A stretch of 64,000 nucleotides of DNA from Candidatus Nomurabacteria bacterium (GCA_943350875.1 CALRAL010000001.1:4829-68828), one strand, 5' to 3'; counted from the first letter of the stretch, positions 24,812 through 62,528 are shown. Program-made: numbers and translations. The notes: a model not told the origin generated them from the letters alone.

Positions 24812-25130
24812 TTTTGGAGTGTCTTTACGATTCCGCTCGAACTTACTTTATCAAAAATTCCTGAGAATATCCACAAGCGTTCCCCGCGCGCTAAAGCGCC
24901 ACCACGCGAAGCGTGGTGCTTCTGCTGAAGCAGAAGTGCGGGAAACGCTCTGCACCTCGCCACTAATGTTTTTCAAACGAGGCGAGGTGCAGAAATGCGG
25001 AACGCGAGCGAAATTTTGCGAAATGCTGGGGGTGTGGGGGAAAGTATTTCGCAAAAATTCGCTCGCGTACTTCCTGATTTTTTTTGGCAAATTAATTTTT
25101 TTGAATTTTTGCTCTCAGAGTTTTGAGCCT
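24812..25130. repeat. Inverted repeat C, left copy (~320 bp); partner at 28270-28602
   Basis: The reverse complement of 28270-28602 aligns along its full length with a few indels. The substitutions are compensatory within hairpins (CCACGCGAAGCGTGG vs CTGTGCGAAGCACAG; CTGCACCTCGCC...GGCGAGGTGCAG vs CTGCACTCCGCC...GGCGGAGTGCAG). Confidence 0.8.
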
Positions 25131-25355
25131 ACAATAAAAAAGTAAAATATGTTATAGTATATTTGCTGACAGATAAATATATTTAGAGCATTCATTGATG
25201 GTTTTTCCGTCAATCGCGTCCAATATTGGCATCCCAATATGAGGAAACACGATTGACGGTGAATGCCGTTTATCTGTCAGCACCTCTTTGTTGGGGTGCC
25301 TATTTTGTTTTTAGGTATCCAATACAAAGATTTTATAAATATAAATCTTAATAAA

Positions 25356-26189: not shown

Positions 26190-26199
26190 TTAGAAATTT

Positions 26200-27153
26200 A
26201 TGGCTTTACATAATTTAACATTGGGAATCCCTGTAAGAAATGAATCATTAAACTTAAAACAATTTATTAATTCTTTAAACATTTCTGTCGATTATTTACA
26301 AAATATCTACAAAGATATCAAGATTGAAATTATAGTTTGCATAAATGGCTCTACGGACAATTCAGAAAATATTATAAAAAATGAAATAATTGCCTCACAT
26401 TTAGACGTCCATCTAATTTTTAGCTCGGAGGGTAAATTAAATGCAATCGATGCTATTTTAAATTCTAAAAAATACAATGATCTAATTGGATTTATTGATG
26501 CAGATACTTTACTTGAGGTGTCGGCAATTTATGAATTGTATGCAGAAATTGTAGATAACAAAAATTTATTTGCAGTGTATTCAAATATGACCCCTAGGGG
26601 TAATGATAGTTTTATTTATAGAATACAGAAAAGCCATTATGATTCACGTTTCTCAAATACGAGAGGATATATTCACGGAAGATTTTACATTTTAAAAAAT
26701 GCTGATTTATTAAAAGTTGAAAGAATAAAAAGAAATAATAAAAAATGGATTTTAGAATACGGTCCGTTAGTTGATGATATATATCTTTCAAGGGTAATTG
26801 TAGCGACTTATGGAGTTGGCGCCATAAAAGAAGTTGAAAAATCAATTATTTATTTTAAACCACCGCAAAATCTAATAGATTTTTTCTTTGGTTATCGTAG
26901 AATTATTATTGAGCTCAAAAGATTATCTTTTTTATATCCCGAACATAATTTTATTCAGAAAAAATATTTTTCAAAAAATAGGTATGGGTTTAAAAAATAT
27001 AAAAATTATGAACAAAAATTTTTATATTTAATTTATCAAATAATTGTTCATTTCATTAAACTGATTGTCGGTTTGGAAATATTATTAATTAATTTTAAAA
27101 TTATAAAATTAAAACATGTCTGGAAAACAACACACTCAACAAAAGTTATTTAA
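26200..27153 (+). CDS. Family-2 glycosyltransferase
   Basis: LTLGIPVRNESLNLKQFINSL...IVCINGSTDNSENII...GFIDADTLLE (GT2 DxD motif). Confidence 0.6.
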   Translation: MALHNLTLGIPVRNESLNLKQFINSLNISVDYLQNIYKDIKIEIIVCINGSTDNSENIIKNEIIASHLDVHLIFSSEGKLNAIDAILNSKKYNDLIGFIDADTLLEVSAIYELYAEIVDNKNLFAVYSNMTPRGNDSFIYRIQKSHYDSRFSNTRGYIHGRFYILKNADLLKVERIKRNNKKWILEYGPLVDDIYLSRVIVATYGVGAIKEVEKSIIYFKPPQNLIDFFFGYRRIIIELKRLSFLYPEHNFIQKKYFSKNRYGFKKYKNYEQKFLYLIYQIIVHFIKLIVGLEILLINFKIIKLKHVWKTTHSTKVI

Positions 27154-27154
27154 T

Positions 27155-27733
27155 ATGGACAAATATTCCAAGTTAAATTTAGCATGTGGCCCAAAGGTAA
27201 AAAATAAATTTAAATTACCTTGGCTAAATGTTGATATCGATGGAAAAGCAGCTGATTTTATCTGTGATATAATGGTATTACAGAAAGAATGGAGTGGTAA
27301 ATTTGAAGAAGTTAGGGCTTCTCATGTATTAGAGCATATTTTTTTAGACGATGTGCCAAAAGTTTTATCCGAATGGATACGAGTATTAAAACCAAACGGC
27401 GTGTTAAGAATCATAGTTCCTGATCTTGATATTGTAATTGAGTCTTTAAACAGTGGTATTGATCAGAAAAAAAGGAAATCTTTATCGGTCGATACTACTA
27501 CCCCGATTTTATCTCAAATTTATGGATGGGGTTATTGGACAAAAAATACAAAAAAGGAATGGAGACACAGAATGATATATAATGAGAAACTTATTATTAA
27601 GATTTTGAAAAATCAGAAAAAATTAAAAAATATAAAAACCTACAAACAAGATCAAGATCCAGCATTTATATTCAAAATAAAAGATGATTCACAAAATATT
27701 TTTTCTTTATGTGTCCAAGCTCAAAAAAAGTAA
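27155..27733 (+). CDS. SAM-dependent methyltransferase (class I)
   Basis: LNLACGPKV...LNVDIDGKAADFICD...LKPNGVLRIIVPD resembles methyltransf_11/23-type motifs I, II and post-II. Confidence 0.5.
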   Translation: MDKYSKLNLACGPKVKNKFKLPWLNVDIDGKAADFICDIMVLQKEWSGKFEEVRASHVLEHIFLDDVPKVLSEWIRVLKPNGVLRIIVPDLDIVIESLNSGIDQKKRKSLSVDTTTPILSQIYGWGYWTKNTKKEWRHRMIYNEKLIIKILKNQKKLKNIKTYKQDQDPAFIFKIKDDSQNIFSLCVQAQKK

Positions 27734-27775
27734 AGTCGATTATATTTATTAGTATTAATAGTTTAAAATAAAATT

Positions 27776-28261
27776 ATGGAACAACCAATGGATAATAAAA
27801 TGAGTAGCAAAATAGAATCAACTAATTTAAAAATTGAATTTGTAAATTTAACTTTAGGAATTGAACCCTCTAATATTGAGACTTCCCACATAAGTGCCAT
27901 ATTTCTAGTTGGCATAAAAGACGGGATGATACTCGCTGCAAGAAATGAAAGAGGGTGGGATATCCCAGGAGGTCACGTAGATGCTGATGATACAGATTTG
28001 TATTCTGCATTAGTACGAGAAGTAGATGAAGAATCAGGTGTAACACTCAAAAAAGCTAAGCCTTTTGCTATCATGAGATTTGATGGAAAAGATAAATCAA
28101 TGCTGTTTTATGTATCCGATGCTTTTGAATTAGAAGAGTTTATACCAAAGGAAGATGCGTTTGAAAGACAAATGATGCCCATTCCAGAATTTATAGAAAA
28201 ATATAATTGGAAGAAAAACGTAATTCAACCAATAATTGAATATGCTATTCAAAATAAATAA
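27776..28261 (+). CDS. Nudix hydrolase
   Basis: Nudix box GGHVDADDTDLYSALVREVDEESGV (Gx5Ex7REVxEExG). Confidence 0.75.
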   Translation: MEQPMDNKMSSKIESTNLKIEFVNLTLGIEPSNIETSHISAIFLVGIKDGMILAARNERGWDIPGGHVDADDTDLYSALVREVDEESGVTLKKAKPFAIMRFDGKDKSMLFYVSDAFELEEFIPKEDAFERQMMPIPEFIEKYNWKKNVIQPIIEYAIQNK

Positions 28262-28269
28262 GAATTTAA

Positions 28270-28602
28270 ATTAAAGTATTTACTCCTCTCAAAACTCTGA
28301 GAGCAAAAATTCAAAAAAATTAATTTGCCAAAAAAAATCAAGAAGCACGCGAAGCGAATTTTGCGAAATACTTTCCCCCAAACCCCCAGCATTTCGCAAA
28401 ATTTCGCTCGCGTTCCGCATTTCTGCACTCCGCCTCCTTTGCCCCCAAAACATTGTGGCGGAGTGCAGAGCATTCTCCCGCACTTCTGCTTCAGCAGAAG
28501 CTCTGTGCTTCGCACAGAGGCGCTTCAGCGCGCGGGGAACGCTTGTGGATATTCTCACGAATTTTTGATAAAGTAAGTTCGAGCGGAATCGTAAAGACAC
28601 TC
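28270..28602. repeat. Inverted repeat C, right copy; ends exactly at the prfB ATG
   Basis: See 24812-25130; ...CGTAAAGACACTC|ATG. Confidence 0.8.
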
Positions 28603-29484
28603 ATGGAAAAAGAAGAAATACAAAATAAAATAGGTACATTAGAAAAGGAAATGACAAGTCCAGATTTTTGGAATGATAAAATAAAAGCGCAAAATATCAT
28701 AAAAGAAATTGCTGAATTAAAGTCAAAGAAAGAGGGTTTTGGAAAATATGATAAAGGGAATGCAATCATCACTATTATCTCTGGCGCAGGAGGGGATGAT
28801 TCTGAAGATTTTGCAAATATGTTGCTCCAAATGTATGTGAAATATGCTGGGAAAAAAGGCTGGGGTGTTTCTTTCATTCATGAAAATAAAAATGAACATG
28901 GTGGTTATAAAAATGTATCTTTTGAAATAGAGGGAAAGGGCGCTTATGGGAATTTAAAAAACGAAGGAGGAGTGCATCGTCTCGTACGTATTTCTCCTTT
29001 TAATGCTAAAAAATTACGTCATACTTCTTTTGCACTGGTTGAGGTTTTGCCAAAATTCTCAAAACTCGAAGAGAAGGATTTTGTGATTCCAGAAGCGGAT
29101 TTGAAAATAGAATTTGCTCGCTCCGGTGGTCCTGGCGGGCAAAATGTGAACAAGAGAGAGACTGCAGTTAGAGTGGTGCATATTCCAAGTGGTATAGCTG
29201 TGCATGCTTCAAATGAGCGTTCGCAAGAGCAGAATAGGGAGCGAGCAATGGCAATCCTGCGGGCTAAAATATTCAAAAAAGCTGAACAAGATAAAAAAAC
29301 AATAGAAGAAAGTCTAAAATTAACTAAAAATACTCAGATAGAGTGGGGGAATCAGATTCGTTCGTATGTTTTGCACCCGTATAAAATGGTGAAAGACCAT
29401 AGGACAGAAGCAGAGACTTCCAATGTTGACGAAGTCCTCGCTGGCGATTTAGAACTATTCATTGAAGCGGAGAAAAATTTGTAA
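28603..29484 (+). CDS. prfB: Peptide chain release factor 2 (SPF motif), apparently without a programmed +1 frameshift and with a short N-terminus
   Basis: RISPFNAKK (SPF tripeptide anticodon), GGQNVNKRETAVR (GGQ). The single ORF runs from MEKEEIQ with no CUU-UGA-type shift site. The upstream in-frame extension belongs to the repeat. Confidence 0.8.
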   Translation: MEKEEIQNKIGTLEKEMTSPDFWNDKIKAQNIIKEIAELKSKKEGFGKYDKGNAIITIISGAGGDDSEDFANMLLQMYVKYAGKKGWGVSFIHENKNEHGGYKNVSFEIEGKGAYGNLKNEGGVHRLVRISPFNAKKLRHTSFALVEVLPKFSKLEEKDFVIPEADLKIEFARSGGPGGQNVNKRETAVRVVHIPSGIAVHASNERSQEQNRERAMAILRAKIFKKAEQDKKTIEESLKLTKNTQIEWGNQIRSYVLHPYKMVKDHRTEAETSNVDEVLAGDLELFIEAEKNL

Positions 29485-29503
29485 TTGTGATACAATTAGT
29501 AGT

Positions 29504-30286
29504 ATGAACCCTTGGATACAGCTAAGTATTGATTACGCAAATCAGAGAAGTTATTTGGATGATCTTTTTAAAGTTTATCCAACTATACCAGATGGTATAC
29601 GCGAAATTAATGAAGAACTTTGGAAAAATATAGAAAACTCCTTCAAAAGTAAAAACAATAAAAACTTAATTGAAAATTTAGTTAAGTTAGATTTATTTCC
29701 TATCAAAGATTCCTATGTTGCTTATTTAAAGAAAGATAAAACAGCTTCTCTAAGAAATCCAAAAACAATATCAAGATTAGCAGGGCGTTTATATGAAATG
29801 GGTTTGAATACTATCTATGAACGTTGTTCAGAGCCAAAAGAAACAAATAGACAAATTGGTCCGTTGTTTCGTCGTTGGTTGAGTAGCAAATCTTTAGGTG
29901 TTCCATACTTGGAATCTACAGAATTTTTAGCTACAAAAGAAAATGCTGTGCTAGATGCAGGTGATGCAGAAATGATGACTTTTGCTAAAAAACATTTTAA
30001 TTATAAACACAATAAAGGGTTAGATTTTATTGCTCGTTTTAATGGTAAATATGTAATTGGGGAAGCGAAATTCTTGACTGACTTTGGTGGACATCAAAAT
30101 GCCCAATTTAATGATGCTATTTCTACAATAAAAACTAAGCATGTAAATGCAGTTAAAATAGCTATTTTAGATGGAGTTCTTTATATTAAAGGAAATAATA
30201 AAATGTATAGAAGTATTACGACAAAATATAAAAAAGAAAATATAATGAGTAGTCTTGTATTACGTGAATTTCTTTATCAACTTTAA
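29504..30286 (+). CDS. Putative Type II restriction endonuclease (PD-(D/E)xK)
   Basis: GLDFIARFNGKYVIGEAKF (D...E-A-K); directly upstream of and co-oriented with a DNA methyltransferase; start trimmed to MNPWIQL. Confidence 0.5.
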   Translation: MNPWIQLSIDYANQRSYLDDLFKVYPTIPDGIREINEELWKNIENSFKSKNNKNLIENLVKLDLFPIKDSYVAYLKKDKTASLRNPKTISRLAGRLYEMGLNTIYERCSEPKETNRQIGPLFRRWLSSKSLGVPYLESTEFLATKENAVLDAGDAEMMTFAKKHFNYKHNKGLDFIARFNGKYVIGEAKFLTDFGGHQNAQFNDAISTIKTKHVNAVKIAILDGVLYIKGNNKMYRSITTKYKKENIMSSLVLREFLYQL

Positions 30287-30294
30287 ATTTTTAT

Positions 30295-31521
30295 ATGTTT
30301 ATAACATACAAAAACAAAAAAGAAGAATTTGAGATCTTAAATACTCCAAAAGCGAGCCTAGAAATTATTTCAGGGAAAGGTTCAAAAAATAAACTTATTC
30401 AAGGTGATAATTTAAGTATTCTTCAGTCTTTAATGAAAGATTATAATTTGAAAGGAAAAATTGATTTGATTTATATTGATCCGCCTTTTGCCACCAATAC
30501 TGATTTTAAAATAGGAGATAGAACAAGTACTATCAGTAGTAGCAATCTTGATGAAATTGCGTATAGCGATACATTAATTGGGGATGATTTTTTGGAGTTT
30601 TTAAGAGAGAGATTAATTTTGCTTCGTGAATTATTGTCAGAAAGAGGCTCTATTTATTTACATATTGATTATAAAATTGGTCATTATGTAAAATTGATAA
30701 TGGATGAAGTTTTTGGAGTAAAAAACTTTCGTAATGATATAACCAGAATTAAATGCAACCCAAAAAATTTTCATAGAAAAGCATATGGCAATGTGAAAGA
30801 TATGATACTTTTTTATACAAAAAATGGAAATCCTATTTGGAATGATCCTCGTGTTGCTTTTTCGAATGAAGACGAAGAACGGTTATTTAAAAAAACTGAT
30901 AAAGATGGAAGAAAATACACAACAATACCATTACATGCTCCAGGAGAAACAACAAAGGGAAATACGGGTAAAGAATGGCGTGGTGTTAAACCACCAAAAG
31001 GACGGCATTGGAGAACCGACCCAAAAATTCTTGAAGAATGGGACAAAGAAGGTTTGATTGAGTGGTCAAAAAATGATGTTCCAAGAAAAAAAATTTATAT
31101 TGATGAAAGGGATGGTAAAAAAACACAAGATATTTGGGAGTTTAAAGATCCGCAATATCCCAATTATCCAACCGAAAAAAATCTTAATCTGCTTAAATTT
31201 ATTATTTCCGCTTCATCTAATAAAGATAGTATTGTTTTAGATTGTTTTTGTGGTTCAGGTACAACATTAATAGGTGCACAAGAATTGGATAGGAATTGGA
31301 TAGGAATAGATCAGTCAGAACAAGCAATAAAAGTTATAAAAGAACGCTTAAATAAAATACAAAATGGTTTTTTTTCAAAAAAAGATTATGAATTTATTAT
31401 AGAAGGTAAAGAATTAATACATCCAAAATATACAATAGAAGATATGGTAAAAGGTATTACAAAGAAAAATAGACACAAGGAAGTTGATTGGGGGCCTCCA
31501 AGAGGTAAAGAAGTATGGTAG
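30295..31521 (+). CDS. DNA methyltransferase, beta-class (N6-adenine or N4-cytosine)
   Basis: IYIDPPFATNTDF (DPPF motif IV) N-terminal; LDCFCGSGTTLIGAQELDRNWIGID (motif I) C-terminal. Confidence 0.75.
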   Translation: MFITYKNKKEEFEILNTPKASLEIISGKGSKNKLIQGDNLSILQSLMKDYNLKGKIDLIYIDPPFATNTDFKIGDRTSTISSSNLDEIAYSDTLIGDDFLEFLRERLILLRELLSERGSIYLHIDYKIGHYVKLIMDEVFGVKNFRNDITRIKCNPKNFHRKAYGNVKDMILFYTKNGNPIWNDPRVAFSNEDEERLFKKTDKDGRKYTTIPLHAPGETTKGNTGKEWRGVKPPKGRHWRTDPKILEEWDKEGLIEWSKNDVPRKKIYIDERDGKKTQDIWEFKDPQYPNYPTEKNLNLLKFIISASSNKDSIVLDCFCGSGTTLIGAQELDRNWIGIDQSEQAIKVIKERLNKIQNGFFSKKDYEFIIEGKELIHPKYTIEDMVKGITKKNRHKEVDWGPPRGKEVW

Positions 31522-34914: not shown

Positions 34915-35517
34915 TTAAGAAAGTTTTTGTTTACGTTTTCGAATTAGGGAAACGATAAACATTGCAACAAGGGTGCCTATGGCAGCCATGGCCATATCTT
35001 TTGGTGTATCAAAGATGTCTCCTTGTGAACCATAGAATGAAGTAGCGAGGACTGGGTTCACAGTCTCGGCGGCGAGCCATTCAAATATCTCATATATTGC
35101 AGAGAAGGCGAGGATGGTTTCCATTGGTACATAATAACTCCAACCATTCTCTACTTTCTTTATATTTATTACAAATTCATGTACTGGGTAAAAAAATAAA
35201 AATCCAAACATAAAATGCGTGAATCTATCATACATATTTCTCGTAGATCCTAAGAATTCCCCCAAGCCATTTCCAAAAGGTACGCCTGTCACTCCATAAT
35301 GCGAAGTTACGAGTGGTAGGAGTAGGTATGCCACTATGAGGGTGAGAGATAAATTTGATATTTGGAGACGTTTTCCGAATATGCCAAAAAATATCAGCCC
35401 CACAAATATCGGGCTGTTCTCAAGCCACCAGTCTGACTGTGATGCCGGGGGGCGTATGCCTGACCATATAAGGACCACAACGAAAACTATCAGTAAAAAC
35501 CATTTATACTTGCTCAT
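34915..35517 (-). CDS. Integral membrane protein (DUF2238/YjdF-like)
   Basis: 200 aa, ~5 TM; family assignment tentative. Confidence 0.45.
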   Translation of the reverse strand: MSKYKWFLLIVFVVVLIWSGIRPPASQSDWWLENSPIFVGLIFFGIFGKRLQISNLSLTLIVAYLLLPLVTSHYGVTGVPFGNGLGEFLGSTRNMYDRFTHFMFGFLFFYPVHEFVINIKKVENGWSYYVPMETILAFSAIYEIFEWLAAETVNPVLATSFYGSQGDIFDTPKDMAMAAIGTLVAMFIVSLIRKRKQKLS

Positions 35518-35555
35518 TTATAAAATAAATCTTAACTCTTTTTTTATCCAAATTC

Positions 35556-35760
35556 AAGACAAAATGTTGATAAAAAAGACGTGCTGTGTCTCTTGAATAA
35601 AATCCGAACTTTTTTCCAAAACAATCCGGATGCTGACTAATACCGACCAGCGCCTCGCAAAGCCTCGGCGCTCCGCCCTCGCCCCATTCCGCCTTTCATT
35701 CTAATTTTTTTCGCGGGGGGATTCTTTTTGAAATTGTATGGGCGGAAACGGGGCTCGGTC
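35556..35760. repeat. Inverted repeat D, left copy (~200 bp, GC-rich); partner at 43195-43382
   Basis: The reverse complement of 43195-43382 is essentially identical (TGCTGTGTCTCTTGAATAAAATCCGAAC...CGCCTCGCAAAGCCTCGGCG...CGCGGGGGGATTC...GGCTCGGTCGGGC). Confidence 0.8.
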
Positions 35761-36207
35761 GGGCTTCTTCTAAGGAAGAAGCGGTCGGTAAATACGTGGT
35801 GTCTCGGACATTATACTATTTTTGATCGTCCGTGACCAAAGGAGTCCATCCTCGGCATTCGCCTCGGACATTTCCGCTAGGGCTACTCGCGCCTAGATGT
35901 CTAGGTTTGGCGCGTTTCCTCGCTCTACGGCACTGTGGTGCCGGAGCTCGGGCGCCAGCAGTTTGGGGGAAGGAAGGAATCCTTCCCCCAGCTTCGCCTC
36001 GTCTCGGCAGGGCTCGACCAACCGGCTCAGCCAACCCCCATCCTCGTTTTCATATCCGAGTATTTCTCAAGATTTTAGATTATCCTTTGTTTATATCGTC
36101 GGCGCTCATCCTTTAGCCACGGACGCCCGTCGCGGAAATGTCCGAGGCTCAAATTCGTATTGCACACTTGACCCACCCTCCCGTTCGCGTGTGCGCAAAA
36201 CCCCGCT
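35761..36207. ncRNA. GC-rich ~450-bp non-coding island with many nested hairpins; candidate structured RNA of unknown class
   Basis: Much more GC-rich than surrounding CDSs (as are the rRNA and tRNAs here). Long-range inverted pair CGCCTCGGACATTTCCGC (35858) / GCGGAAATGTCCGAGG (36128); perfect 9-bp stem GGGGGAAGG-AAGGAAT-CCTTCCCCC; a TTGGTC-N18-TATAAT-like promoter on the minus strand near 35800-35830. The ORFs here are Arg/Pro/Ala-rich and look spurious. Confidence 0.4.
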
Positions 36208-36240
36208 CGCAAGGACGAGAGGCGTGCGAGCGGGGCTCCC
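36208..36240 (-). terminator. Rho-independent terminator for the minus-strand operon (11-bp stem CCCCGCTCGCA...TGCGAGCGGGG, then a T-tract on the minus strand)
   Basis: Seen directly after the stop of the nuclease gene. Confidence 0.65.
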
Positions 36241-36990
36241 TTAATTTTCTAAAACTTTTCTTGCGTTCCAGTATGCACACCAATCACAATGCTCACCAGA
36301 TTTTGGTATCACATCACTTTCTAAACATTTTTTAATTTCAAACAAAGTTTTTTCAACCCAAGAATCATCGCCTTTGTGTTCAATCAAATTGACATCAAAA
36401 TCAATTCGTTTATCAAATGCTTGTCTATCCATTTTTCCAGTGCAATATACAAAATAACCAATATCAGAGACCTTTAGCCCATTCTGCCTCAAAAGCCACT
36501 GATACACCTCCATTTGGCGTTTATAGCCATCTTGCCACTCTTTATCCAGCGCTTTAACAGCTTCATCCTTTGCAGTGGCTTTATAATCCACGACAATATA
36601 CTCGTCTTTTCCGTTGATCCACAAATCATCAATCGCACCAGTTACCAAAAGTCCAGTCGGCTCATGCAAATATCTAATACCACCAAAATTTCTTCGCCAT
36701 TCATCAAGCTCTTTGTGAGACATTGGTCGTGCGTCAATTCCATATTCTTTTTGTAGTGGGTGCTGTTCGTTTTTTGTACGGTATGAATCAAATTCTTGTT
36801 TAAGAAGATAATCAACCGCACTATTGATAGAAAACGGAAATCCGGGTACTCGTTTTACACCAAGTTTGTTATCAATGTAAAAACATCGTGGACACTCTTT
36901 AAACAAATCAATTTTAGAACGAGAAAGTTTCCAGTTCTTTCCGCCATAATTCCACCCATCACCTCTATTTGCTTTATAGTATTCAGACAT
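36241..36990 (-). CDS. Cas4/RecB-like PD-(D/E)xK nuclease with four Cys (CxxC...CxxC), putative Fe-S cluster
   Basis: N-terminal CPRC, core GAIDDLWING...DEYIVVDYKATAK (D...E-x-x-x-D-Y-K), C-terminal HCDWC. Confidence 0.65.
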   Translation of the reverse strand: MSEYYKANRGDGWNYGGKNWKLSRSKIDLFKECPRCFYIDNKLGVKRVPGFPFSINSAVDYLLKQEFDSYRTKNEQHPLQKEYGIDARPMSHKELDEWRRNFGGIRYLHEPTGLLVTGAIDDLWINGKDEYIVVDYKATAKDEAVKALDKEWQDGYKRQMEVYQWLLRQNGLKVSDIGYFVYCTGKMDRQAFDKRIDFDVNLIEHKGDDSWVEKTLFEIKKCLESDVIPKSGEHCDWCAYWNARKVLEN

Positions 36991-36999
36991 AAAATTTTG

Positions 37000-38502
37000 T
37001 TAATTATAATATGAGTCAAACACTTGCACCTCCTTTTTGCTAATAAGAGTCTTCGTTTTGCCGATTTTTGCCTTATCAATATATGACCTATCCTCGATTG
37101 ATTTTTTAATCACTGCATCATCAATCCAATCTGTAACAAAGATATTTTGCGCTTCACCATCTACGGCTTTACACAATTTCTCATTAAGCGATAGTTTAAA
37201 TTTCAAACCAATCGACATTCTCTGTATCCAAATTTCAATTAGTCCAGTATTTGAAAGATTACAAATCTTATTCTGAATTTTTAGAAGTAGTTCTTTTTTA
37301 GATTTTATTGTTAGTTTTGATATACAACTCGATACTAAACCAGCGATCACGGGAAAAGCGTTTGGATTGTTATAAGCAATATCAATAAGCAAACTTGTTA
37401 TCAGTTTTTGTTGATTATAAAAATCTTTGTCATTAACCGCATCGAGAATTTTAGACAGTCTATTTTTAAGAGTTCCTGAATTTGGATGCCACTTTCCAAT
37501 TTGTTGGACAATCATTAACTGCCGGAGTAATTCTTTTTTTGATAATTTTTTAGGAACGGCTTCAAATTTAAGAGCCTCTATCTTGTCGGGTTTTATTGAG
37601 CCTGTAACAACATCGTCGCAAGAATATGTTTTATTAGTATTTAGACGGAAACCGAATCCTATCAGTGTTTCGCTTAGACATTTTAGAATTATATCTCCAT
37701 CCATTGTATCATTCGTGAAAATTCTATAATCATCTCGATACCGAAGTATGTGAAATTTTTTATCTTTCAACGTAGTATTAAGTTTGTTTGATAATTCAGT
37801 ATCAGCATAACCTAGGACTATCTCTGCTATAAAATCCATCAAAATACTTCCTTGTGGTATTCCATTAGTTTGACCATAAGACATTGCTTGAACATGGTGA
37901 TCAATTTTATTTCCAAATAAGTCTGCATATTTTTGCTTTTTCTTTGATTCTTCTTTTGTATGAATAGCCCAAGGTATTGAGTGCGTATAAATAGAGCCAT
38001 AACAATCAGTAATATCAGTCTGATATAAAAACTTATATTCCAAAGCTAGAGTTACAGATTTCTTTTCTACATTATTAACCCATTGCGAAATTTGAGATGC
38101 TCTTTGTTTAGATTTATATCTTGGCAATACAGGAATACTTTCGCATTCGATATTTTTATCACCTTGAAATTCTTTAAATCTATCTTGTAAAGATTTCCAG
38201 TTATCTTTCTGTGTGATTACATTTACTAGAGAAACATACAACAACGGGTTTATAATTTCATATTTTCTCCAAGCATATTTTCCATCCTTATTACCATATA
38301 AGATATGATTAACTGTTTCGTATTTTTTCGCTTTTTTAAGATCGTCAAATGTGAGTTCTTTATCTTTAAAATTCTTTGTAATAACAGAAAGTAATTTACT
38401 AAATGAAAAATAGGGTGGCAATTCTATATTAGAAAAGGATTCTTGGTTTATAAAGAATTTTTTTGCATCTGTTGGGTTTAAATTTAAGACATTTTTTGAC
38501 AT
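37000..38502 (-). CDS. Reverse transcriptase of the Abi/UG (defence-associated) type with an alpha-helical C-terminal extension
   Basis: RT motifs QTDITDCYGSIYTHSI (motif 2), NGIPQGSILMDFIAEIVL (motif 4, PQG), HILRYRDDYRIF (YxDD variant), LIGFGFRLNTNKT (motifs 6/7). About 180 aa N-terminal and ~200 aa helical C-terminal regions, with no maturase/En domains. Confidence 0.7.
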   Translation of the reverse strand: MSKNVLNLNPTDAKKFFINQESFSNIELPPYFSFSKLLSVITKNFKDKELTFDDLKKAKKYETVNHILYGNKDGKYAWRKYEIINPLLYVSLVNVITQKDNWKSLQDRFKEFQGDKNIECESIPVLPRYKSKQRASQISQWVNNVEKKSVTLALEYKFLYQTDITDCYGSIYTHSIPWAIHTKEESKKKQKYADLFGNKIDHHVQAMSYGQTNGIPQGSILMDFIAEIVLGYADTELSNKLNTTLKDKKFHILRYRDDYRIFTNDTMDGDIILKCLSETLIGFGFRLNTNKTYSCDDVVTGSIKPDKIEALKFEAVPKKLSKKELLRQLMIVQQIGKWHPNSGTLKNRLSKILDAVNDKDFYNQQKLITSLLIDIAYNNPNAFPVIAGLVSSCISKLTIKSKKELLLKIQNKICNLSNTGLIEIWIQRMSIGLKFKLSLNEKLCKAVDGEAQNIFVTDWIDDAVIKKSIEDRSYIDKAKIGKTKTLISKKEVQVFDSYYN

Positions 38503-38527
38503 ATTCTTTAGTAAACATGGAACGGAA

Positions 38528-40435
38528 CTATCTCCATAAATCTAAAATCGTATTCCTAAGCAAAACATCCTCTTTATTTAGATTGTTTCTTAATTTCTCT
38601 ACTTCATCGTACTTTTTCACTATTTTTATTTGTTCTGAAATTGATGGTAGTGGAATATATATTTTTTCCAATAAATCAGGCGGTGTTAGATATTTTCTAT
38701 TTGTTGATCCAGATGAAGCATTTGCCACTATAGACTCAAAGTCGCCTGATGAAATCACAAGATTAAGAAATTTTGGCAAGATTAAGTCAGTGTTTAATTT
38801 TGCGGTAGCCATGTTCGAAGTCACAACACAATCAGAATAATCTTTAGTTATTAATCCGAATCCACCAGATTTTGTATCAACCTTACACCAGAACAAAGAA
38901 TCATTTTTAACCGGTCTATATTTTAGAGTTTTCTTTAATTCTTTTCCCTTTACAACTTTAGAAATAAAACATCCTTTACCATGCGACCGCACTCCAAGAA
39001 CTTTATATTCCTTTTCATCGACAAGTGATATGGGTTTCTCATTATAAAATGATAGTACTTTTGATAATTTTACAAAATCATCATTTTCAGCATTATGATT
39101 TTTCAAGTATTCATTAGCTAACAGCTTTGATTGTTTACTTAGTAAAATACTTTCTTTTTTAACTATATGAAATACTAAATTGGTTTTGTGTGCTAGTTTA
39201 TAACTTCCTAAAATTGATTTCTTGATTTCATCTAGCAATTCTACACATAATGGTAAATCATTTTTTTCAAATTCTTTTCTTTGTAACCCCAAATCATAGC
39301 CGTCATTTTGAATATCGATAAAATACACAGAATCACTCTTTTTTGAAATCTCTTTATCAAAAAAGAGTATATTTGTTTTGTTGTCTGCGTAAGGATTAAA
39401 AACTCCTGAGGGAAGTGAGATTACAGCCCACAACCAATTATCTTTAACCAATTTTGTTCTAAGAGATCTAAAAGAGCTTTGGGTGTTAAATACTACTCCT
39501 TCAGGAACGATTACTCCGCCTCTACCGTTAATCCCTAAATGTTCTAACATATAATCAACAAAAAGAACTTCCGCTTTATTTGCTTGAACAGAAAATCTTT
39601 TGTGTGGCTTGATTCCGCCTGTTGGTGTCATAAAGGGAGGATTTGCCATTATTACATCGTACATTTCGTCCCACTTCTCATCGCTTGAAAGTGTGTCGTA
39701 TTCAAAAATTTTAGGCTCGGCGAAACCATGCAAATACATATTTACTTTTGAAAGTTTTACCATGTCAGGAGAAATATCATAGCCGACTAAATTATTCATC
39801 AATTTTTCTTTTTCGTCGGGGGTAAGTGGCTTGTCTTTTTGTTGTTTGAGAATATGTTTGTATGCAGAAATTAAAAATCCAGCCGTACCGCAAGCAGGAT
39901 CTAAAATTTTATCTCCTTTCTTTGGGTCTACTACCTCGGCTATAAAATCAATAATGTGGCGTGGTGTGCGAAATTGTCCTGCATCGCCTTGAGAGCCGAG
40001 AATAGAGAGTAAATATTCAAAAGCATTTCCTAAATCTTCGCTGTGGTCATAAGTAAAACCGTTAATTTCTTTCAAAAACAAAGTTAAAGTTTCGGGACTT
40101 CGGTATGGAAGAAAGGCATCTTTGAAAATATCTCGGAATAATTGTGGGATGTGTGGATTTTGAGACATTTTAGCAACGGCTTCGCCATAAAGCTCTAAAC
40201 GCTCATGTCCACCGAGTTTTTGGTCAAGTAATTTCGTCCACGCATATTTTTCAAAACCTTTTGTGAAAAATCTTGCTTTTCCGCCAAGTTCAATCGCTTC
40301 TTTATCCATATCGTCCATAAACTTGTAAATCAAAGCCGTTGTGATTTGTTCAACTTGGGCTTTTGGGTCGGGGACTTTGCCGACAAGAATATTGCGGGCA
40401 GAGTCAATTTTTCGTTTTGTTTCTTGAGTAAGCAT
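38528..40435 (-). CDS. N6-adenine DNA methyltransferase fused to a single target-recognition domain (M-S fusion)
   Basis: Motif I ILDPACGTAGFLIS; motif IV MANPPF; C-terminal TRD ending in the HsdS-type conserved block IYIPLPSISEQIKIVKKYDEVEKL. Confidence 0.8.
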   Translation of the reverse strand: MLTQETKRKIDSARNILVGKVPDPKAQVEQITTALIYKFMDDMDKEAIELGGKARFFTKGFEKYAWTKLLDQKLGGHERLELYGEAVAKMSQNPHIPQLFRDIFKDAFLPYRSPETLTLFLKEINGFTYDHSEDLGNAFEYLLSILGSQGDAGQFRTPRHIIDFIAEVVDPKKGDKILDPACGTAGFLISAYKHILKQQKDKPLTPDEKEKLMNNLVGYDISPDMVKLSKVNMYLHGFAEPKIFEYDTLSSDEKWDEMYDVIMANPPFMTPTGGIKPHKRFSVQANKAEVLFVDYMLEHLGINGRGGVIVPEGVVFNTQSSFRSLRTKLVKDNWLWAVISLPSGVFNPYADNKTNILFFDKEISKKSDSVYFIDIQNDGYDLGLQRKEFEKNDLPLCVELLDEIKKSILGSYKLAHKTNLVFHIVKKESILLSKQSKLLANEYLKNHNAENDDFVKLSKVLSFYNEKPISLVDEKEYKVLGVRSHGKGCFISKVVKGKELKKTLKYRPVKNDSLFWCKVDTKSGGFGLITKDYSDCVVTSNMATAKLNTDLILPKFLNLVISSGDFESIVANASSGSTNRKYLTPPDLLEKIYIPLPSISEQIKIVKKYDEVEKLRNNLNKEDVLLRNTILDLWR

Positions 40436-40438
40436 AAT

Positions 40439-42925
40439 TTACATATAAGTATTTACGGACACATAATCTTTGACATATTCCGGTATCACTTCACGAAAGC
40501 CGTTTAGCTCTTTGAAATCTCCCATTGATACTTTTGGATTTGTAGCAAAACGACCATATTCTTTTGATTCCACAATCTCACGAATTTCATTGTCGGTTAT
40601 GTATGCCTTTAGGAAATTTTTGATTGGATAGTAATATTTGCTATCGGGTTTGTAGATAGAGATAAACTTTTCAAATTCTTCTTCCAAAAGCTCATCTTTA
40701 TTTTTGAATTTATCAAGGCGACCAAAAATTTTGTCTATGACTTCTCGTAGGGAAATGCGACGATCAACTTTTGCTGATTTTCGGAGTTTTTCAAGGTTGT
40801 AAAATTCCTGCGGTTTATCGAAAATCTCCGTTTTTACATATTCCTCAACGGCTTGCATATCGCCCTGTTCATATTTCTCTTTGATAAATGAATCAGCTTT
40901 GATTGTGTCCTCAAATTTCTCAAAGAGTTTCCTATCAACTTTCATTCCCTCAACGCCTACGGCTTTTTCGTTGAAAGTTTTAAGTGGGTCAGGAGTTCCA
41001 ATAATTATTTCGTCAATATCAACTCCTCCGCCACCTGTACCACCAGTTCCAATTTTTGGTATTTTTAGAATCTCGTCATAGTTAAACTTTTCCTCAAAAT
41101 ATTCGCAGTTTGCAAAGAAATCAAAAAGCTTGAATTTGTCTTTTTCGGTATTATTTTTGTCGCCATCGTTTTCAAACGAAAAAACATATTTTCTTGTACC
41201 ACGCCCTTTGATCTGAATGAAATCTGTCGGCGAGAAAATCGGGCGCATAAGTCCGAGGTTTAATATATTTTGGCAGTCATAGCCAGTAGTCATCATCCCG
41301 ACAGTTACGCAAACTCTCGTTTTACTTGATTTATACCCATCGAGCCATTTTGTATGTCCGTTGAGATTATCATTTGAAAAATTGATTGTGAATTGCTGGG
41401 CGTCGCTGATATTTGAAGTAACTTGAACGGCAAAATCGGAATTGTATTTATTCGGGTAGTGCTTATCAGCTAATTGGTTAAGTATTTGCGTAATTTTTGT
41501 CGCATGGTTTTGACTAACGCAATAAATAATACTTTTACCAATTTCTCCACTCACTGGATCAACAAGAGCATTTTTGAGAAAAGTTTCGCAAAAAATCGTG
41601 TTTGTCTTATCCGAGAAAAATTTCCTTTCAAAATCCTTTTGGTAAAAAGTTTGTTCCTCTTTTCCTTCCTCCGTATCAACAAGCAGAGAATATCCCTCAT
41701 CAGATAAAAGCTGTGTTGTTATTTCTGTTCGAGCGTCAGCAACGATAGGATTTACCAAAAATCCCTCTTTCACACCATCTAACAAGCTGTAACGGAAAGT
41801 TGGCTCACCGTTTTCGCAACCAAAAGTAGTGTATGTATCAAGAAGTTGCCGACGCTCCCAAGCTCGCGGGTCTTTTTCGCCTAATTTTACAGGGTCAATG
41901 CCTTTGAGATAATTTTTCGGTGTTGCTGTAAGTCCCAGTTTATACCCAACAAAGTATTCAAAAACCGCTCTGCTATTTCCGCCGATTGATCGGTGCGCTT
42001 CGTCTGAAATAATAAGGTCAAAATCTGTCGGAGAGAAAAGTTTTTGATATTTATCAGAAATGCTTTGAATCGTGGTAACGACAATTTCTGCCTTTCGCCA
42101 ATCATCACGATTTTCTTTATATATCACAGTCGTATAATCTTTTGAAAGCCACTTTTTGAAATTTTTTGCCGCCTGATCTTCAAGCTCTATGCGGTCTACT
42201 AAAAACAATACTCTTTTCGCGTTTCCTGTTTTAAGAAATAATTTTATAACGGCGGCACAAGTAAGGGTTTTACCTGTTCCAGTCGCCATTTCAAAAAGAT
42301 AACGATCTTTTCCACTACTAGCCCAGCCCTGTAATGCCTCAATCGCTTTCAACTGGTACGGACGCAGAAATTTTAGGTCGTATTCTTTTACAAGTTCAGA
42401 TTTCTTGTCGTCGTTCCATCGTGGGTCTTTTTGATAACTAGGATTTTGTGTTAGTGCGATATAATCGGCAGTCAATTTTTCGTCCGCAAGTTTTTTCGGG
42501 TCTGGTTTGAATGCTTCAAAATGCTTCAGAGATTCCTGTGTTGGGAAAACTGTAATTATTTGTGGATTACCTCGCTCCAAATCCCAAAAATAATGTATAT
42601 TGCCATTTGAAAGAATTATAAAACGAACATTGAGCGATTGAGCATATCGACGAGCCTGTTCTTTTCCGTTCAGAGGGTCTTTCTCTTCTGATTTCGCCTC
42701 CAAAACTAAATACGGGAAACCTTTTTCGTCGAGCAAGAGAAAATCGACAAAGCCATCTTTCGTTTTATCAAAATCATTACCAAGCTCATCAACGGCATTT
42801 TTTGTCAGCTTCACATTGTTTTCTAGAGCAATGTTTGCTGTGCCTTTTTCATCGTCAAAAAATCTCCAGTTGGATTCTTGAAGTAAATTATTGATTTTGA
42901 TTCTGGCTTTGGCTTCTTTTTGCAT
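40439..42925 (-). CDS. Restriction subunit: N-terminal Mrr/PD-(D/E)xK nuclease plus SF2 helicase-like ATPase (HsdR / Type ISP-like)
   Basis: VDFLLLDEKGFPYLVLEAKSEEK nuclease motif; Walker A MATGTGKT; DEAH-box LIISDEAHRS; 828 aa. Confidence 0.8.
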   Translation of the reverse strand: MQKEAKARIKINNLLQESNWRFFDDEKGTANIALENNVKLTKNAVDELGNDFDKTKDGFVDFLLLDEKGFPYLVLEAKSEEKDPLNGKEQARRYAQSLNVRFIILSNGNIHYFWDLERGNPQIITVFPTQESLKHFEAFKPDPKKLADEKLTADYIALTQNPSYQKDPRWNDDKKSELVKEYDLKFLRPYQLKAIEALQGWASSGKDRYLFEMATGTGKTLTCAAVIKLFLKTGNAKRVLFLVDRIELEDQAAKNFKKWLSKDYTTVIYKENRDDWRKAEIVVTTIQSISDKYQKLFSPTDFDLIISDEAHRSIGGNSRAVFEYFVGYKLGLTATPKNYLKGIDPVKLGEKDPRAWERRQLLDTYTTFGCENGEPTFRYSLLDGVKEGFLVNPIVADARTEITTQLLSDEGYSLLVDTEEGKEEQTFYQKDFERKFFSDKTNTIFCETFLKNALVDPVSGEIGKSIIYCVSQNHATKITQILNQLADKHYPNKYNSDFAVQVTSNISDAQQFTINFSNDNLNGHTKWLDGYKSSKTRVCVTVGMMTTGYDCQNILNLGLMRPIFSPTDFIQIKGRGTRKYVFSFENDGDKNNTEKDKFKLFDFFANCEYFEEKFNYDEILKIPKIGTGGTGGGGVDIDEIIIGTPDPLKTFNEKAVGVEGMKVDRKLFEKFEDTIKADSFIKEKYEQGDMQAVEEYVKTEIFDKPQEFYNLEKLRKSAKVDRRISLREVIDKIFGRLDKFKNKDELLEEEFEKFISIYKPDSKYYYPIKNFLKAYITDNEIREIVESKEYGRFATNPKVSMGDFKELNGFREVIPEYVKDYVSVNTYM

Positions 42926-42931
42926 AAAAAT

Positions 42932-43219
42932 TTATTTCAAAAGTTCGCTACTGGAAATCCCCAACGCATTAGCAATCTTTTCCAAGGTGGAAAGAGTGGG
43001 GTTCATACGACCATTCTCAATATTGCTAATATATGCTCTATCCACACTCAAAGCGGTCGCAAGGTCTCCTTGCGACATATTCTTTTTCAGACGCCATTTT
43101 CTAAGGTTTTCACCTAATTTCTTGCCAGATGACATATTTTGTATTTTATTCTCACTTGCATCATATTGCAATCGTGTAATATAATGCACATAGCCCGACC
43201 GAGCCCCGTTTCCGCCCAT
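42932..43219 (-). CDS. XRE-family HTH transcriptional regulator (putative controller of the defence operon)
   Basis: LRKWRLKKNMSQGDLATALSVDRAYISNIENGRMNPTLSTLEKIANALGISSSEL. Confidence 0.75.
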   Translation of the reverse strand: MGGNGARSGYVHYITRLQYDASENKIQNMSSGKKLGENLRKWRLKKNMSQGDLATALSVDRAYISNIENGRMNPTLSTLEKIANALGISSSELLK

Positions 43220-43382
43220 ACAATTTCAAAAAGAATCCCCCCGCGAAAAAAATTAGAATGAAAGGCGGAATGGGGCGAGGGCGGAGCGCCGAGGCTTTGC
43301 GAGGCGCTGGTCGGTATTAGTCAGCATCCGGATTGTTTTGGAAAAAAGTTCGGATTTTATTCAAGAGACACAGCCCTGAATG
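43195..43382. repeat. Inverted repeat D, right copy
   Basis: See 35556-35760; abuts the recombinase-element inverted repeat at 43371. Confidence 0.8.
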
Positions 43383-45068
43383 CAAATCGCCGTTTTCGCC
43401 AAAATGCGGAGCGTCGCAAAGCGACGCGACCGGAGTTTCCGCCAGAATTCGCCAAGGGTTTTTGAAATCCAAAAGGAGCGAGCGGGACGCGAGGCGGGGG
43501 TTCTCTGTTCTCCGAACAGTCAAAACAAAGTTTTGTGAGCCAATCTTGAAGCGATAATTATCAATATTTAACATAAACCTTTTTCTATGAACAAATTCTT
43601 TCTCTACGCTAGAAAATCTACCGACGAGCCCGATCGTCAGATTTTGAGTATTGAAGCGCAGATTGACGAGTTGAAAGAATTTGCCACGCGAGAGCAGTTA
43701 GAGATTCTTGAAACTTTTATTGAATCACAGACCGCTAAAGAGCCGGGTAGACCTATTTTCAACAATATGCTCTCGCTCATAGAAAAAGGAAAAGCGTCGG
43801 GAATTTTAGCTTGGCACCCCGATAGATTAGCGAGAAATAGTATTGATGGCGGAAAGATAATCTATCTGTGCGACCTTGGCAAAATTAAAGAGCTAAAATT
43901 CCCGACCTTTTGGTTTGATGCTACGCCACAAGGTAAGTTTATGTTAAATATTGCTTTTGGGCAGAGCAAATACTATGTAGATAATCTTTCAGAGAATGTA
44001 AAGCGTGGACTTCGACAAAAAGTAAGACGAGGCGAACAAAGTGGTCAAGCTCCGACAGGATATTTGAATGACAAACTAAACAAGAAAATTATTCCCGACC
44101 CTGAAAGATTTCGCCTCGTCAGGAAAATGTTCGAAGTCTACGCTACTGGAAATTATTCTCTGAAAGAAACAAGGAATTTGCTCGCCCAAAAGGGCTTGGT
44201 GTCTAAAAATGGTAAAGTTCTCACTATTTCAAACACACAAATGATATTGAAAAATCCTTTTTACTACGGAATGTTTTTATTTAATCGAGAACTTTACCAA
44301 GGAAAGCACGAGCCAGCGATTTCAAAGAAACTTTTTGATAAGTGCGCAGAGGTATCGGCGAGGAACGCTCACCCAACAAAGCGAGGAATTATCAAACACA
44401 CTTTTCGCGGAATATTTTTTTGCGGAGAATGTGGCTGTGGTATCACCAGCGAAATACAAAAAGGTCATACCTATTATCGTTGCACCAAAAAGAAAGGTGT
44501 TTGCACACAAAAATATATCCGCGAAGAATTCCTCGCCGAACGAGTAAATGAGACTATCAAAAAGGTTTCTTTGCCGTCCGAGTGGAAAGAATTCATGCTC
44601 GCTGAACTAGATAAGGAGCAAGCGAGCAGTTTCCACTCTGACGAGCTTTTCGTTCAAAATTTGAAAAATCAAATCAAAAGTGTTGAGGAGACGCTGGACA
44701 GGCTTCTTGACGCTCATTTGGACAGCACAATTACGAGCGATGAGTATATCGCCAAAAAGCAAAAGCTCCTCAACCAGAAAATTGATTTTTCAGAGAAATT
44801 GAAAGATTTTGAACGAAAAGGCAATCGCTGGCTCGAACTTTCTAAACAATTTATTTTAGACAGCAACCAAGCCTTAATTATCGCTTCCGAAGAAAATCTC
44901 GAAGCCAAAAGAGATTTTCTTAAAAAGATTGGCTCGAACCCCCGCCTCGCGTCCCGCTCGCTCCTTTTGGATTTCAAAAACCCTTGGCGAATTCTGGCGG
45001 AAACTCCGGTCGCGTCGCTTTGCGACGCTCCGCATTTTGGCGAAAACGGCGATTTGCATTCAGGGCTG
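43371..45068 (+). mobile_element. Serine-recombinase element 2: recombinase gene bounded by perfect ~133-bp terminal inverted repeats (43371-43503 / 44936-45068)
   Basis: The reverse complement of 44936-45068 equals 43371-43503 (CAGCCCTGAATGCAAATCGCCG...GCGTCGCAAAGCGACGCGACC...GAGGCGGGGGTTC). The outer end overlaps the 3' end of tRNA-Gln. Shares the GCGTCGCAAAGCGACGC hairpin core with element 1. Confidence 0.75.
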
Positions 45069-45125
45069 CGGGTCAGGGACTCGAACCCCAATACCATCCT
45101 CCAGAGGGATGTGTCCTACCGTTAG
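43587..45125 (+). CDS. Large serine recombinase, paralogue of the 22901-24493 gene
   Basis: FLYARKSTDEPDRQILSIEAQIDELKEF...AWHPDRLARNSIDGG...NPFYYG...CGECGCG...YYRCTKKKGVC. The C-terminus reads through the TIR and the antisense tRNA, so the true end is uncertain. Confidence 0.8.
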   Translation: MNKFFLYARKSTDEPDRQILSIEAQIDELKEFATREQLEILETFIESQTAKEPGRPIFNNMLSLIEKGKASGILAWHPDRLARNSIDGGKIIYLCDLGKIKELKFPTFWFDATPQGKFMLNIAFGQSKYYVDNLSENVKRGLRQKVRRGEQSGQAPTGYLNDKLNKKIIPDPERFRLVRKMFEVYATGNYSLKETRNLLAQKGLVSKNGKVLTISNTQMILKNPFYYGMFLFNRELYQGKHEPAISKKLFDKCAEVSARNAHPTKRGIIKHTFRGIFFCGECGCGITSEIQKGHTYYRCTKKKGVCTQKYIREEFLAERVNETIKKVSLPSEWKEFMLAELDKEQASSFHSDELFVQNLKNQIKSVEETLDRLLDAHLDSTITSDEYIAKKQKLLNQKIDFSEKLKDFERKGNRWLELSKQFILDSNQALIIASEENLEAKRDFLKKIGSNPRLASRSLLLDFKNPWRILAETPVASLCDAPHFGENGDLHSGLRVRDSNPNTILQRDVSYR

Positions 45126-45135
45126 ACGAACCCGC
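45067..45135 (-). tRNA. tRNA-Gln (CTG)
   Basis: Minus-strand GCGGGTT-CG-TCTAACGGTAGGACA-CATCC-CTCTGGA-GGATG-GTAT-TGGGG-TTCGAGT-CCCTG-ACCCGC-A. Short D-arm; moderate confidence. Confidence 0.6.
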
Positions 45136-45192
45136 AATATAATGATAGAATAATACAATAATAGTTTTTAATCAAATAGTTTTAAATTCATT

Positions 45193-47873: not shown

Positions 47874-47898
47874 AATATCAAGGGTAGTCCTTGATATT
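47874..47898. repeat. REP-like palindrome AATATCAAGGGTAGTCCTTGATATT (copy 1 of 4)
   Basis: Perfect palindrome, near-identical to copies at 61072, 61780 and 62478 that flank a RAYT gene. Confidence 0.7.
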
Positions 47899-47935
47899 TT
47901 ATTGTTATTTTTTAATTTGGTGCTATAATTTCCTT

Positions 47936-59156: not shown

Positions 59157-60777
<1,621 letters not shown>

Positions 60778-62502: not shown

Positions 62503-62528
62503 TTGTTTTTTATTGTATAATTAAATAT

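Follow-up and report, generated by a model that had tools for sequence, protein, structure and literature searches.

A conserved, folded non-coding module at the end of a mobile defence-gene island in Candidatus Nomurabacteria

A GC-rich stretch of about 450 bp lies next to a reverse transcriptase (RT) gene in a 64,000-nucleotide stretch of Candidatus Nomurabacteria DNA (hereafter the window), and a preliminary description of the sequence had raised the possibility that it encodes an RT-associated non-coding RNA. We asked what this region is, whether it belongs with the RT, and what it might do. The analysis identified it as a conserved, folded non-coding module at the end of a mobile island of defence genes and indicated that, in all likelihood, it is part of the backbone of a large serine recombinase (LSR) island and is not linked to the RT.

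Composition, conservation and folding

The G+C content was 0.55-0.58 across 35700-36150 versus about 0.25-0.40 elsewhere in the 64-kb window, and the folding of 35630-36245 exceeded that of dinucleotide shuffles with z = -6.2 on the plus strand and z = -5.0 on the minus strand. These values bore out the initial impression of a GC-rich, hairpin-dense stretch. The stable local stems reported at the same time are present, including the TGGGGGAAGGA/TCCTTCCCCCA hairpin at 35964-35974/35980-35990, and the long-range pair first described as two 17-nt segments (35858 and 36128) was recovered as 35861-35882/36127-36148, 22 nt with 91% complementarity, the arms forming a 23-bp helix in the family alignment; GGAAATGTCCGAGGC lies at 36133-36147 and its complement at 35862-35876. 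The promoter-like site noted on the minus strand is also present, as TGGTCA-N17-TATAAT at 35838-35810. The bounds had to be corrected: those first proposed, 35761-36207, do enclose GC-rich non-coding DNA, but the conserved unit in an 85-copy profile is 35790-36245.

No credible open reading frame (ORF) had been seen in the region, and none was conserved in the 85 homologues. The shortest stop-free stretch in these sequences was 25-36 codons in every frame, and the homologue length differences were evenly spread over mod 3, which together ruled out protein coding. Covariance-model scans, which the preliminary description had called for, returned no match to RNase P, tmRNA, group II, retron, HEARO, GOLLD or ROOL models. 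For this region, in the window and in 13 homologous loci, nothing in Rfam 15 reached the gathering score, no OLE or retron model matched either, and at E <= 10 there were chance-level microRNA, lncRNA and snoRNA matches alone; ARAGORN found no tmRNA. The faint resemblance to the P4 strand of RNase P that had been remarked on thus found no support from any Rfam family even at E <= 10, and the scans agreed with the earlier decision against calling the region RNase P.

Conservation was assessed in an alignment of 85 copies, no pair of which was more than 97% identical over most of its length. It begins at about 35790 and ends at 36245, with blocks of at least 90% at 35845-35905, 35960-35995, 36033-36075, 36096-36150 and 36163-36192 and a GCTCCC at 36236-36241 (conservation at least 0.9); the copies are otherwise 71-90% identical, and the recombinases travelling with the module are 37-96% identical. 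It had been proposed that a lack of both transcription and conservation in related genomes would point to a fragment of foreign high-GC DNA; the conservation half of this proposal was checked, and the region is conserved in homologues. The conserved elements are as follows.

35790-35845, minus strand: left module, a promoter-like site with a conserved leader (promoter scan)
35838-35833 and 35815-35810, minus strand: predicted -35 and predicted -10 (TATAAT) of that site (promoter scan)
35845-36148: central structured domain, about 300 nt (85-copy conservation profile)
35861-35883: closing helix, 5' arm, nearly invariant, partner 36125-36148
36125-36148: closing helix, 3' arm (family alignment and covariation)
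35889-35893/36101-36105: inner helix of the central domain
35904-35960: irregular hairpin of the central domain
35963-35991: hairpin of the central domain, GGGGGAAGG stem, AAGGAAU loop
36033-36100: conserved C-rich and A/U-rich stretch of the central domain
36164-36192: hairpin with conserved loop TTGACCCACCCTCCCGTTC, all four stem pairs covarying
36201-36235, minus strand: GC-rich hairpin right after the nuclease stop codon, 11-bp perfect stem, followed by UUUUG
36236-36245: conserved junction GCTCCCTTAA; the last cargo gene has its stop codon here (36241-36243, minus strand)

RNAalifold placed 97 pairs in the 85 sequences. Paired cells amounted to 90.4% versus 33-48% when the partners were slid, and 30 of the 97 pairs had double-sided changes versus 8-21 in the slid controls. 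In a 24-sequence alignment, 96.1% of cells were paired versus 36-54% in the slid controls, double-sided changes occurred in 11 pairs versus 0-4, and none of 500 shuffles matched the observed values. The closing helix pairs in 81-84 of the 85 sequences at most positions (97.4% of cells in the 24-sequence set), one of its pairs switching between AU (47 sequences), GC (30) and A.C (7), and the inner hairpins at 35904-35960, 35963-35991 and 36164-36192 covary freely. These results showed that, across the 85 homologues, the helices are maintained by compensatory substitutions beyond controls, the general mark of a structured non-coding RNA, and the alignment of homologous loci that had been suggested for this purpose was thereby informative. 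An alternative long-range pairing, 35827-35843/36109-36125, was 50-70% paired and had moderate support; as it is incompatible in full with the closing helix, it was left as a possible alternative conformation. Other candidates were discarded: a 10-nt match, 35803-35812/36137-36146, is unconserved; a hidden att-like half-site, GTTCGGATTT, gave random-level matches inside the element (18 of 85 at one position); iteron-like GCCTCG repeats were too few to be meaningful; and an operator shared with the HTH promoter was dropped, the arm sequence having no further copy in the window.

The module has three parts: a promoter-like site with its leader on the left, the central domain, and hairpins on the right. 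The left part points outward, into arm Y (described below) and on toward the host gene; its -10 is kept as TAnAAT in most homologues, the block 35790-35812 is conserved, and we infer that the site acts as a promoter. The right part, about 95 nt, resembles tandem minus-strand terminators and is shared with islands that lack the center. Its 36164-36192 hairpin, after which AUUUGnAUUUG comes next on the minus strand, is probably the terminator of the cargo operon, and nhmmer also found it in L021, L023, L018 and L042, elements without the central domain. The 36201-36235 hairpin, with a loop consensus that is purine-rich on the plus strand, is missing in many homologues and would be an optional, terminator-like hairpin. 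A neighboring ORF ends a few nucleotides from the junction edge in most of the 79 loci listed, and it is on the minus strand in 68 of the 79 (among the matches listed). The central domain is specific to this module type; L021, L023 and L027 carry in its place a different GC-rich module without the long closing stem. These replacement modules (L021:6556-6821, L023:2323-2665 and L027:104-306) are about 200-340 nt long, occupy the same position beside the Y arm, and have only the C-rich-loop hairpin and the GCTCCC junction in common with the studied module.

Signals of strand were mixed. Wobble at interior pairs was symmetric (G.U 155 versus A.C 159), while A.C exceeded G.U in the closing helix (23 versus 11), an excess that favors the minus strand or DNA. 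UNCG tetraloops numbered 42 on the plus strand versus 1 on the minus strand, mostly at one hairpin apex. Neither a sigma-70-like promoter on the plus strand nor a canonical terminator turned up in scans of 35300-36500, a result compatible with read-through transcription.

The serine-recombinase island

As judged from its sequence, the element carrying the module is an LSR island that has inserted at the tRNA-Gln 3' end. Its order is attL (tRNA-core-X), LSR, an intact inverted attP (X'-core-Y'), cargo, module and attR (Y-core-host), with the following features.

34915-35517, minus strand: DUF2238 gene, on the other side of the studied region
35583-35765: arm Y, predicted P arm of attR, with core GCTG at 35583-35586 and the host DNA upstream of DUF2238 to its left
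36241-43219, minus strand: cargo span (PADLOC and Pfam)
36241-36990, minus strand: PD-(D/E)XK (Cas4-like) nuclease, cargo
37000-38502, minus strand: Abi-P2 RT, cargo (best PADLOC match AbiP2, E = 6e-178)
38528-40435, minus strand: type I HsdM/S, cargo
40439-42925, minus strand: HsdR, cargo
42932-43219, minus strand: XRE-type HTH, cargo
43192-43503, plus strand: predicted internal attP, intact and inverted (Y' 43192-43374, core CAGC 43371-43374, X 43371-43503)
43587-45125, plus strand: LSR gene (Pfam Resolvase, Recombinase, Zn_ribbon_recom)
44936-45137, minus strand: predicted attL, arm X' (44936-45068) abutting tRNA-Gln (45063-45137)

Two perfect inverted repeats are present, one of 183 nt (35583-35765/43192-43374) and one of 133 nt (43371-43503/44936-45068); the 133-nt pair brackets the LSR gene and ends at the tRNA-Gln 3' end. 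Junctions of three kinds (tRNA 3' end-core-X, Y end-core-X and Y end-core-host) were found in 13 loci. In 11 of these the junctions have a core of 3-7 nt in common (CAGC here); in L039 and L040 they overlap over a longer, imperfect stretch. The Y end (…AAAAAAGTTCGGATTTTATTCAAGAGACA) resembles a tRNA T-arm and lies at the same distance from the core. We read these junction types as attL, attP and attR. Empty tRNA-Thr/prfB sites occur in L021 and L025, with tRNA-Thr 2-7 nt before prfB, and they equal the attB predicted for the first element in the window and thus support the att model; for the studied island, the predicted empty attB is the tRNA-Gln end, CAGC and then ACGTCTTTTTT. On this reading the attP region is duplicated and inverted, and the long inverted repeats are its P and P' arms; the junction pattern together with the empty sites indicates that each island carries an intact inverted attP between its recombinase and cargo segments. 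Most simply, such an island would have arisen from a circular element that carried a repeat of about 316 nt twice, in inverted orientation, and used one of the two for integration.

Homologous loci were collected by a GTDB genome scan with the two recombinases of the window, yielding 80 loci, each of them labelled as Patescibacteria or compatible with that group, and by a metagenome scan with the invariant 27-mer CGCCTCGGNCANTTCCGCTAGGGCTAC, yielding at least 120 contigs. The same architecture was present in most of the 80 LSR loci, down to 50% protein identity, and the recombinase and cargo segments occurred among loci in all four relative orientations. Orientation polymorphism in the source population was considered and dropped: contigs from that population with the HTH gene have the arrangement of the window alone. 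The metagenome assemblies (k=141) break inside arm Y because k is shorter than the repeat. Of the 36 long loci with a Y-type arm, 31 have the end of that arm 81-124 nt ahead of the search motif, or about 10-55 nt ahead of the start of the conserved element; in the remaining 5 the distance to the motif is 163-238 nt. In most loci the module starts 10-20 nt inside the Y arm, at the cargo end opposite the HTH gene, and an HTH gene adjacent to the proximal arm recurs in 31 loci carrying the element (among the matches listed).

The LSR ORF extends through arm X' into the tRNA-Gln antisense. As it crosses the core, its last 20 residues or so depend on the sequence beyond the att site. Both recombinase ORFs of the window (43587-45125 and 22901-24493) cross a GC-rich P' arm and the att core into tRNA antisense in this way; the C-terminal tail of the recombinase would differ between the integrated and the excised state, and the tails of the two recombinases are unconserved between them.

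A second island of the same design was observed at 22890-28602. It starts at tRNA-Thr and has the host gene prfB at its far end; a perfect 146-nt repeat pair (22961-23106/24674-24819) surrounds a 530-aa recombinase (22901-24493, minus strand) that is 49% identical to that of the studied island, and a repeat pair of about 311 nt and about 92% identity (24817-25127/28288-28602) flanks the cargo, which comprises an unknown 308-aa protein, a glycosyltransferase, a methyltransferase and a Nudix protein. This island is without a counterpart of the studied module. In L132, the cargo is flanked by an inverted repeat of 2131 nt with 99.9% identity that takes in the whole recombinase gene, such that two inverted recombinase copies bracket the cargo; L139 is similar, and the arrangement may be real or an assembly fold-back.

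Further features were noted elsewhere in the window. The host block between the islands contains, beside prfB, a Tsp45I-like restriction enzyme and an N4/N6 methyltransferase (29462-31521), a further restriction-modification system outside both islands. A group I intron match of 78 bits (21303-21535, minus strand) lies just upstream of a 244-aa ORF (21615-22349, plus strand) and a tRNA cluster. The 16S rRNA match at 59158-60777 spans 1620 nt versus a model of 1533 positions, with insertions of about 90 nt; insertions of this type are often reported for rRNAs of the Candidate Phyla Radiation (CPR). Two families of short GC-rich palindromes, CCCCTCTCCTTGATAAGGAGAGGGG (10105-10135, 10960-10990 and 11766-11796) and ATATCAAGGGTAGTCCTTGATAT (47874-47906, 61070-61097, 61776-61803 and 62474-62510), lie between genes and may be terminators or REP-like repeats.

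Distribution of the module and its neighboring genes

Homologues of the module were found in at least 120 metagenome contigs and 3 genomes. The latter are 3 of the 80 genome loci (L035, L031 and L014), and the right end alone was detected in L023, L021, L018 and L042 (blastn and nhmmer). The islands occur in ultra-small CPR/Patescibacteria bacteria; blastn against phages and plasmids and a motif scan of viral contigs gave no copy. Loci L014-L030 have recombinases 93-96% identical to that of the window, in metagenome-assembled genomes (MAGs) labelled Nomurabacteria, Lloydbacteria, Taylorbacteria, Giovannonibacteria, Paceibacteria and Minisyncoccia; such similarity under different labels suggests that the gene has recently moved between CPR lineages. 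In many cases the contig stops within 150-350 nt of the recombinase gene, at the repeats.

The genes beside the module vary from copy to copy. Among the matches listed, the adjoining gene belongs to 57 unrelated families in 79 loci, and sampled neighbors score as RT_UG17, DitA and Old, indicating a diverse cargo in which known defence genes are represented. By tblastn, the Abi-P2 RT was absent beside the module in at least 120 contigs and 3 genomes (among the matches listed), and neither the RT nor the nuclease was present in any of the 80 genome loci. The nuclease appeared in one of the at least 120 metagenome contigs, on the far side. It has thousands of relatives of 80-94% identity in CPR contigs; in three long contigs (L008, L010 and L012) its upstream partner is Fic/RhuM, Bro-N or SocA (SocA_Panacea), and the next gene follows within about 60 nt, leaving no long spacer downstream of the nuclease. 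A link to the nuclease was thus ruled out. This 249-aa PD-(D/E)XK protein, found directly downstream of varied partners, looks like a conserved effector with interchangeable upstream genes. The constant partner of the module is the attP-derived inverted-repeat arm of the serine-recombinase element.

Possible function, alternatives and significance

How might such a module serve the island? We put forward, with slightly less than even confidence, that it is a cis-acting folded RNA at the attP boundary that, in the manner of lambda sib, couples or insulates transcription across the att site. The central domain would act as folded RNA, in cis, where the cargo meets the attachment site. In the excised circle, as reconstructed, the plus-strand order would be LSR, X', core, Y and module; read-through from the recombinase gene would cross attP into the module on the plus strand, and integration would cut this link. 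The fate of the recombinase mRNA could then follow the integration state, through either a stable 3' domain or a long perfect duplex that would suit RNase III. Transcription of the cargo would be separated by the flanking promoter and terminators from the transcript that crosses the att site into the host or the LSR gene: we infer from the sequence that outward transcripts would begin at the left edge of the module and cargo transcripts would stop at the right edge.

In the reconstructed circle, the module does lie across attP from the recombinase and is parted from it by integration, only in isomers in which it faces the LSR 3' end. Given the four segment orientations, it would be 5' of the LSR gene in some isomers, which argues against a sib-like mechanism. 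So do its optional nature (3 of 80 genome loci; replaced in L021, L023 and L027) and the consideration that a simple retroregulator needs neither 300 nt nor conserved loops. A circular form of the element was not observed either. The symmetric wobble counts against an RNA mechanism, and the plus-strand reading is weakened by the fact that the UNCG count comes mostly from one hairpin.

The hairpins could work in single-stranded or extruded DNA instead, serving the excised island as a replication or single-strand origin, an ssDNA promoter, or a packaging or transfer signal for its passage between CPR cells; ssoA and F Frpo are examples of a single-strand origin and an ssDNA promoter. Mismatches tolerated without strand asymmetry, two nearly invariant arms of the 23-bp helix, as a recognized duplex would have, and a conserved A/T-rich segment (36047-36098) inside GC-rich hairpins all speak for this, as does a backbone without a replication or transfer gene, so that any such function would have to be cis-acting. 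However, there was no evidence for a free or replicating form; the searches of viral contigs, phages and plasmids returned no copies; a single-strand origin should give one-strand asymmetry; a conserved iteron or DnaA-box pattern was not found; and most related elements spread widely without the central domain. We regard a DNA-level role as fairly unlikely. More unlikely still is that the module is a plain bidirectional insulator, whose stacked hairpins stop or process transcripts from both strands and do nothing more specific. The position between the end of the cargo operon and the outward promoter-like site would suit an insulator, as would the terminator-like right hairpins common to elements without the center, the symmetric constraint on both strands and the different GC-rich modules of L021, L023 and L027, but loops and unpaired blocks conserved at 90% or more in copies otherwise 71-90% identical are left unexplained, as is conservation better than that of the accompanying recombinases.

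The remaining explanations are far less probable. That the 23-bp arms are terminal inverted repeats of a non-autonomous transposon (MITE) of about 290 bp is suggested by their near invariance and their spacing of 240-330 bp, and yet the window holds one copy, every copy sits in the same context beside the Y arm with conserved flanks on both sides of the arms, target-site duplications are absent, no copies were seen at unrelated sites with target duplications, and the internal hairpins covary; we consider this very improbable. Hardly any weight can be given to the RT-associated non-coding RNA with which this study began, a template or scaffold for the neighboring RT as in retrons or DRT2/DRT9. 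The module does lie directly downstream of the RT-nuclease pair, and the L035 copy adjoins the gene of an unrelated RT, RT_UG17. Against this stand the absence of Abi-P2 RT matches and the 57 neighbor families described above (among the matches listed), the lack of a retron or other Rfam match, and the identity of the RT itself, which by its best PADLOC match is not a template-dependent, RNA-partnered enzyme but an Abi-P2, of a family that makes DNA without a template. Abi-P2 RTs are protein-primed and template-independent, and no partner RNA is thus expected. Just as implausible is a divergent housekeeping RNA (RNase P, tmRNA, 6S or SRP), or else foreign high-GC junk or a decayed gene. The other GC-rich islands of the genome are rRNA and tRNA, and the P4-strand likeness would fit the former, but no Rfam or ARAGORN match appeared at permissive thresholds and the module is carried by a mobile element and missing in most related genomes. 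Strong conservation and covariation speak against junk or a decayed gene.

Among known systems, the folded RNA proposed here is best compared with lambda sib/tI, a hairpin beyond attP that makes the fate of the int mRNA depend on the integration state. Both are hairpin-forming non-coding elements beyond attP from a recombinase gene; here too, the element would be reached by read-through only with attP intact and cut off by integration, and the near-perfect 23-bp helix would suit RNase III. Unlike in lambda, the recombinase is of the serine rather than the tyrosine type, the module spans some 300-450 nt with several conserved hairpins instead of one and lies about 300 nt beyond the core, and two inverted attP copies are present, some isomers placing the module upstream of the recombinase gene. 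In Tn4451/Tn4453-like elements, the circular joint creates or connects the recombinase promoter. The large serine recombinase (TnpX in those elements) is shared, as is an outward promoter-like site at the element end that, in some configurations, would read through the joint (attP) and into the recombinase gene; in contrast, the putative promoter is here complete on one side of the att site, and the insertion is tRNA specific with long structured arms flanking the core. Like HEARO/omega RNA, GOLLD, ROOL, ssoA and Frpo, the module is GC rich, multi-hairpin, several hundred nucleotides long, borne by mobile DNA and far better conserved than its flanks, but its constant associated proteins are the LSR and HTH only, its interior pairs show symmetric wobble, and no Rfam 15 model, including those of HEARO/omega RNA, GOLLD and ROOL, matches it. 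By analogy, the module may work like sib or the joint-dependent promoters while belonging to none of these groups.

The genomes of the 2-micron plasmid, chloroplasts and herpesviruses have unique segments bounded by inverted repeats and exist as isomers. Here, similarly, recombinase and cargo segments are separated by two inverted recombination-site repeats and show all four relative orientations among loci, whereas the element is chromosomally integrated through one repeat copy and its isomers are seen between lineages, not within one population. In layout the island resembles the 2-micron plasmid or a herpesvirus genome more closely than any described serine-integrase element. Literature searches found no description of the island architecture or of the conserved strings.

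CPR/Patescibacteria are uncultured and genome-reduced, and their gene exchange is poorly known. The present island, distinctive for its unusual duplicated, inverted attP, is a widespread, recombinase-driven element by which defence genes (restriction, Abi, Old, DitA, RT and others) are carried between distant CPR lineages. It also carries a warning, in that GC-rich, RNA-like spacers beside defence genes can be parts of mobile elements rather than of defence systems. The recombinase, the short att sites at tRNA ends and the module would be testable genome-engineering parts for organisms without genetic tools. A bolder reading is possible, although we judge it somewhat unlikely: the central domain would represent a large structured RNA of a new class, or a folded ssDNA signal, specific to an undescribed kind of CPR integrative element with two inverted attP copies, and would control or read the integration state or segment orientation of that element; the element family would be a main vehicle of defence systems between Patescibacteria. 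If the module does control the recombinase or the life cycle of the element, it would represent a new class of regulatory RNA.
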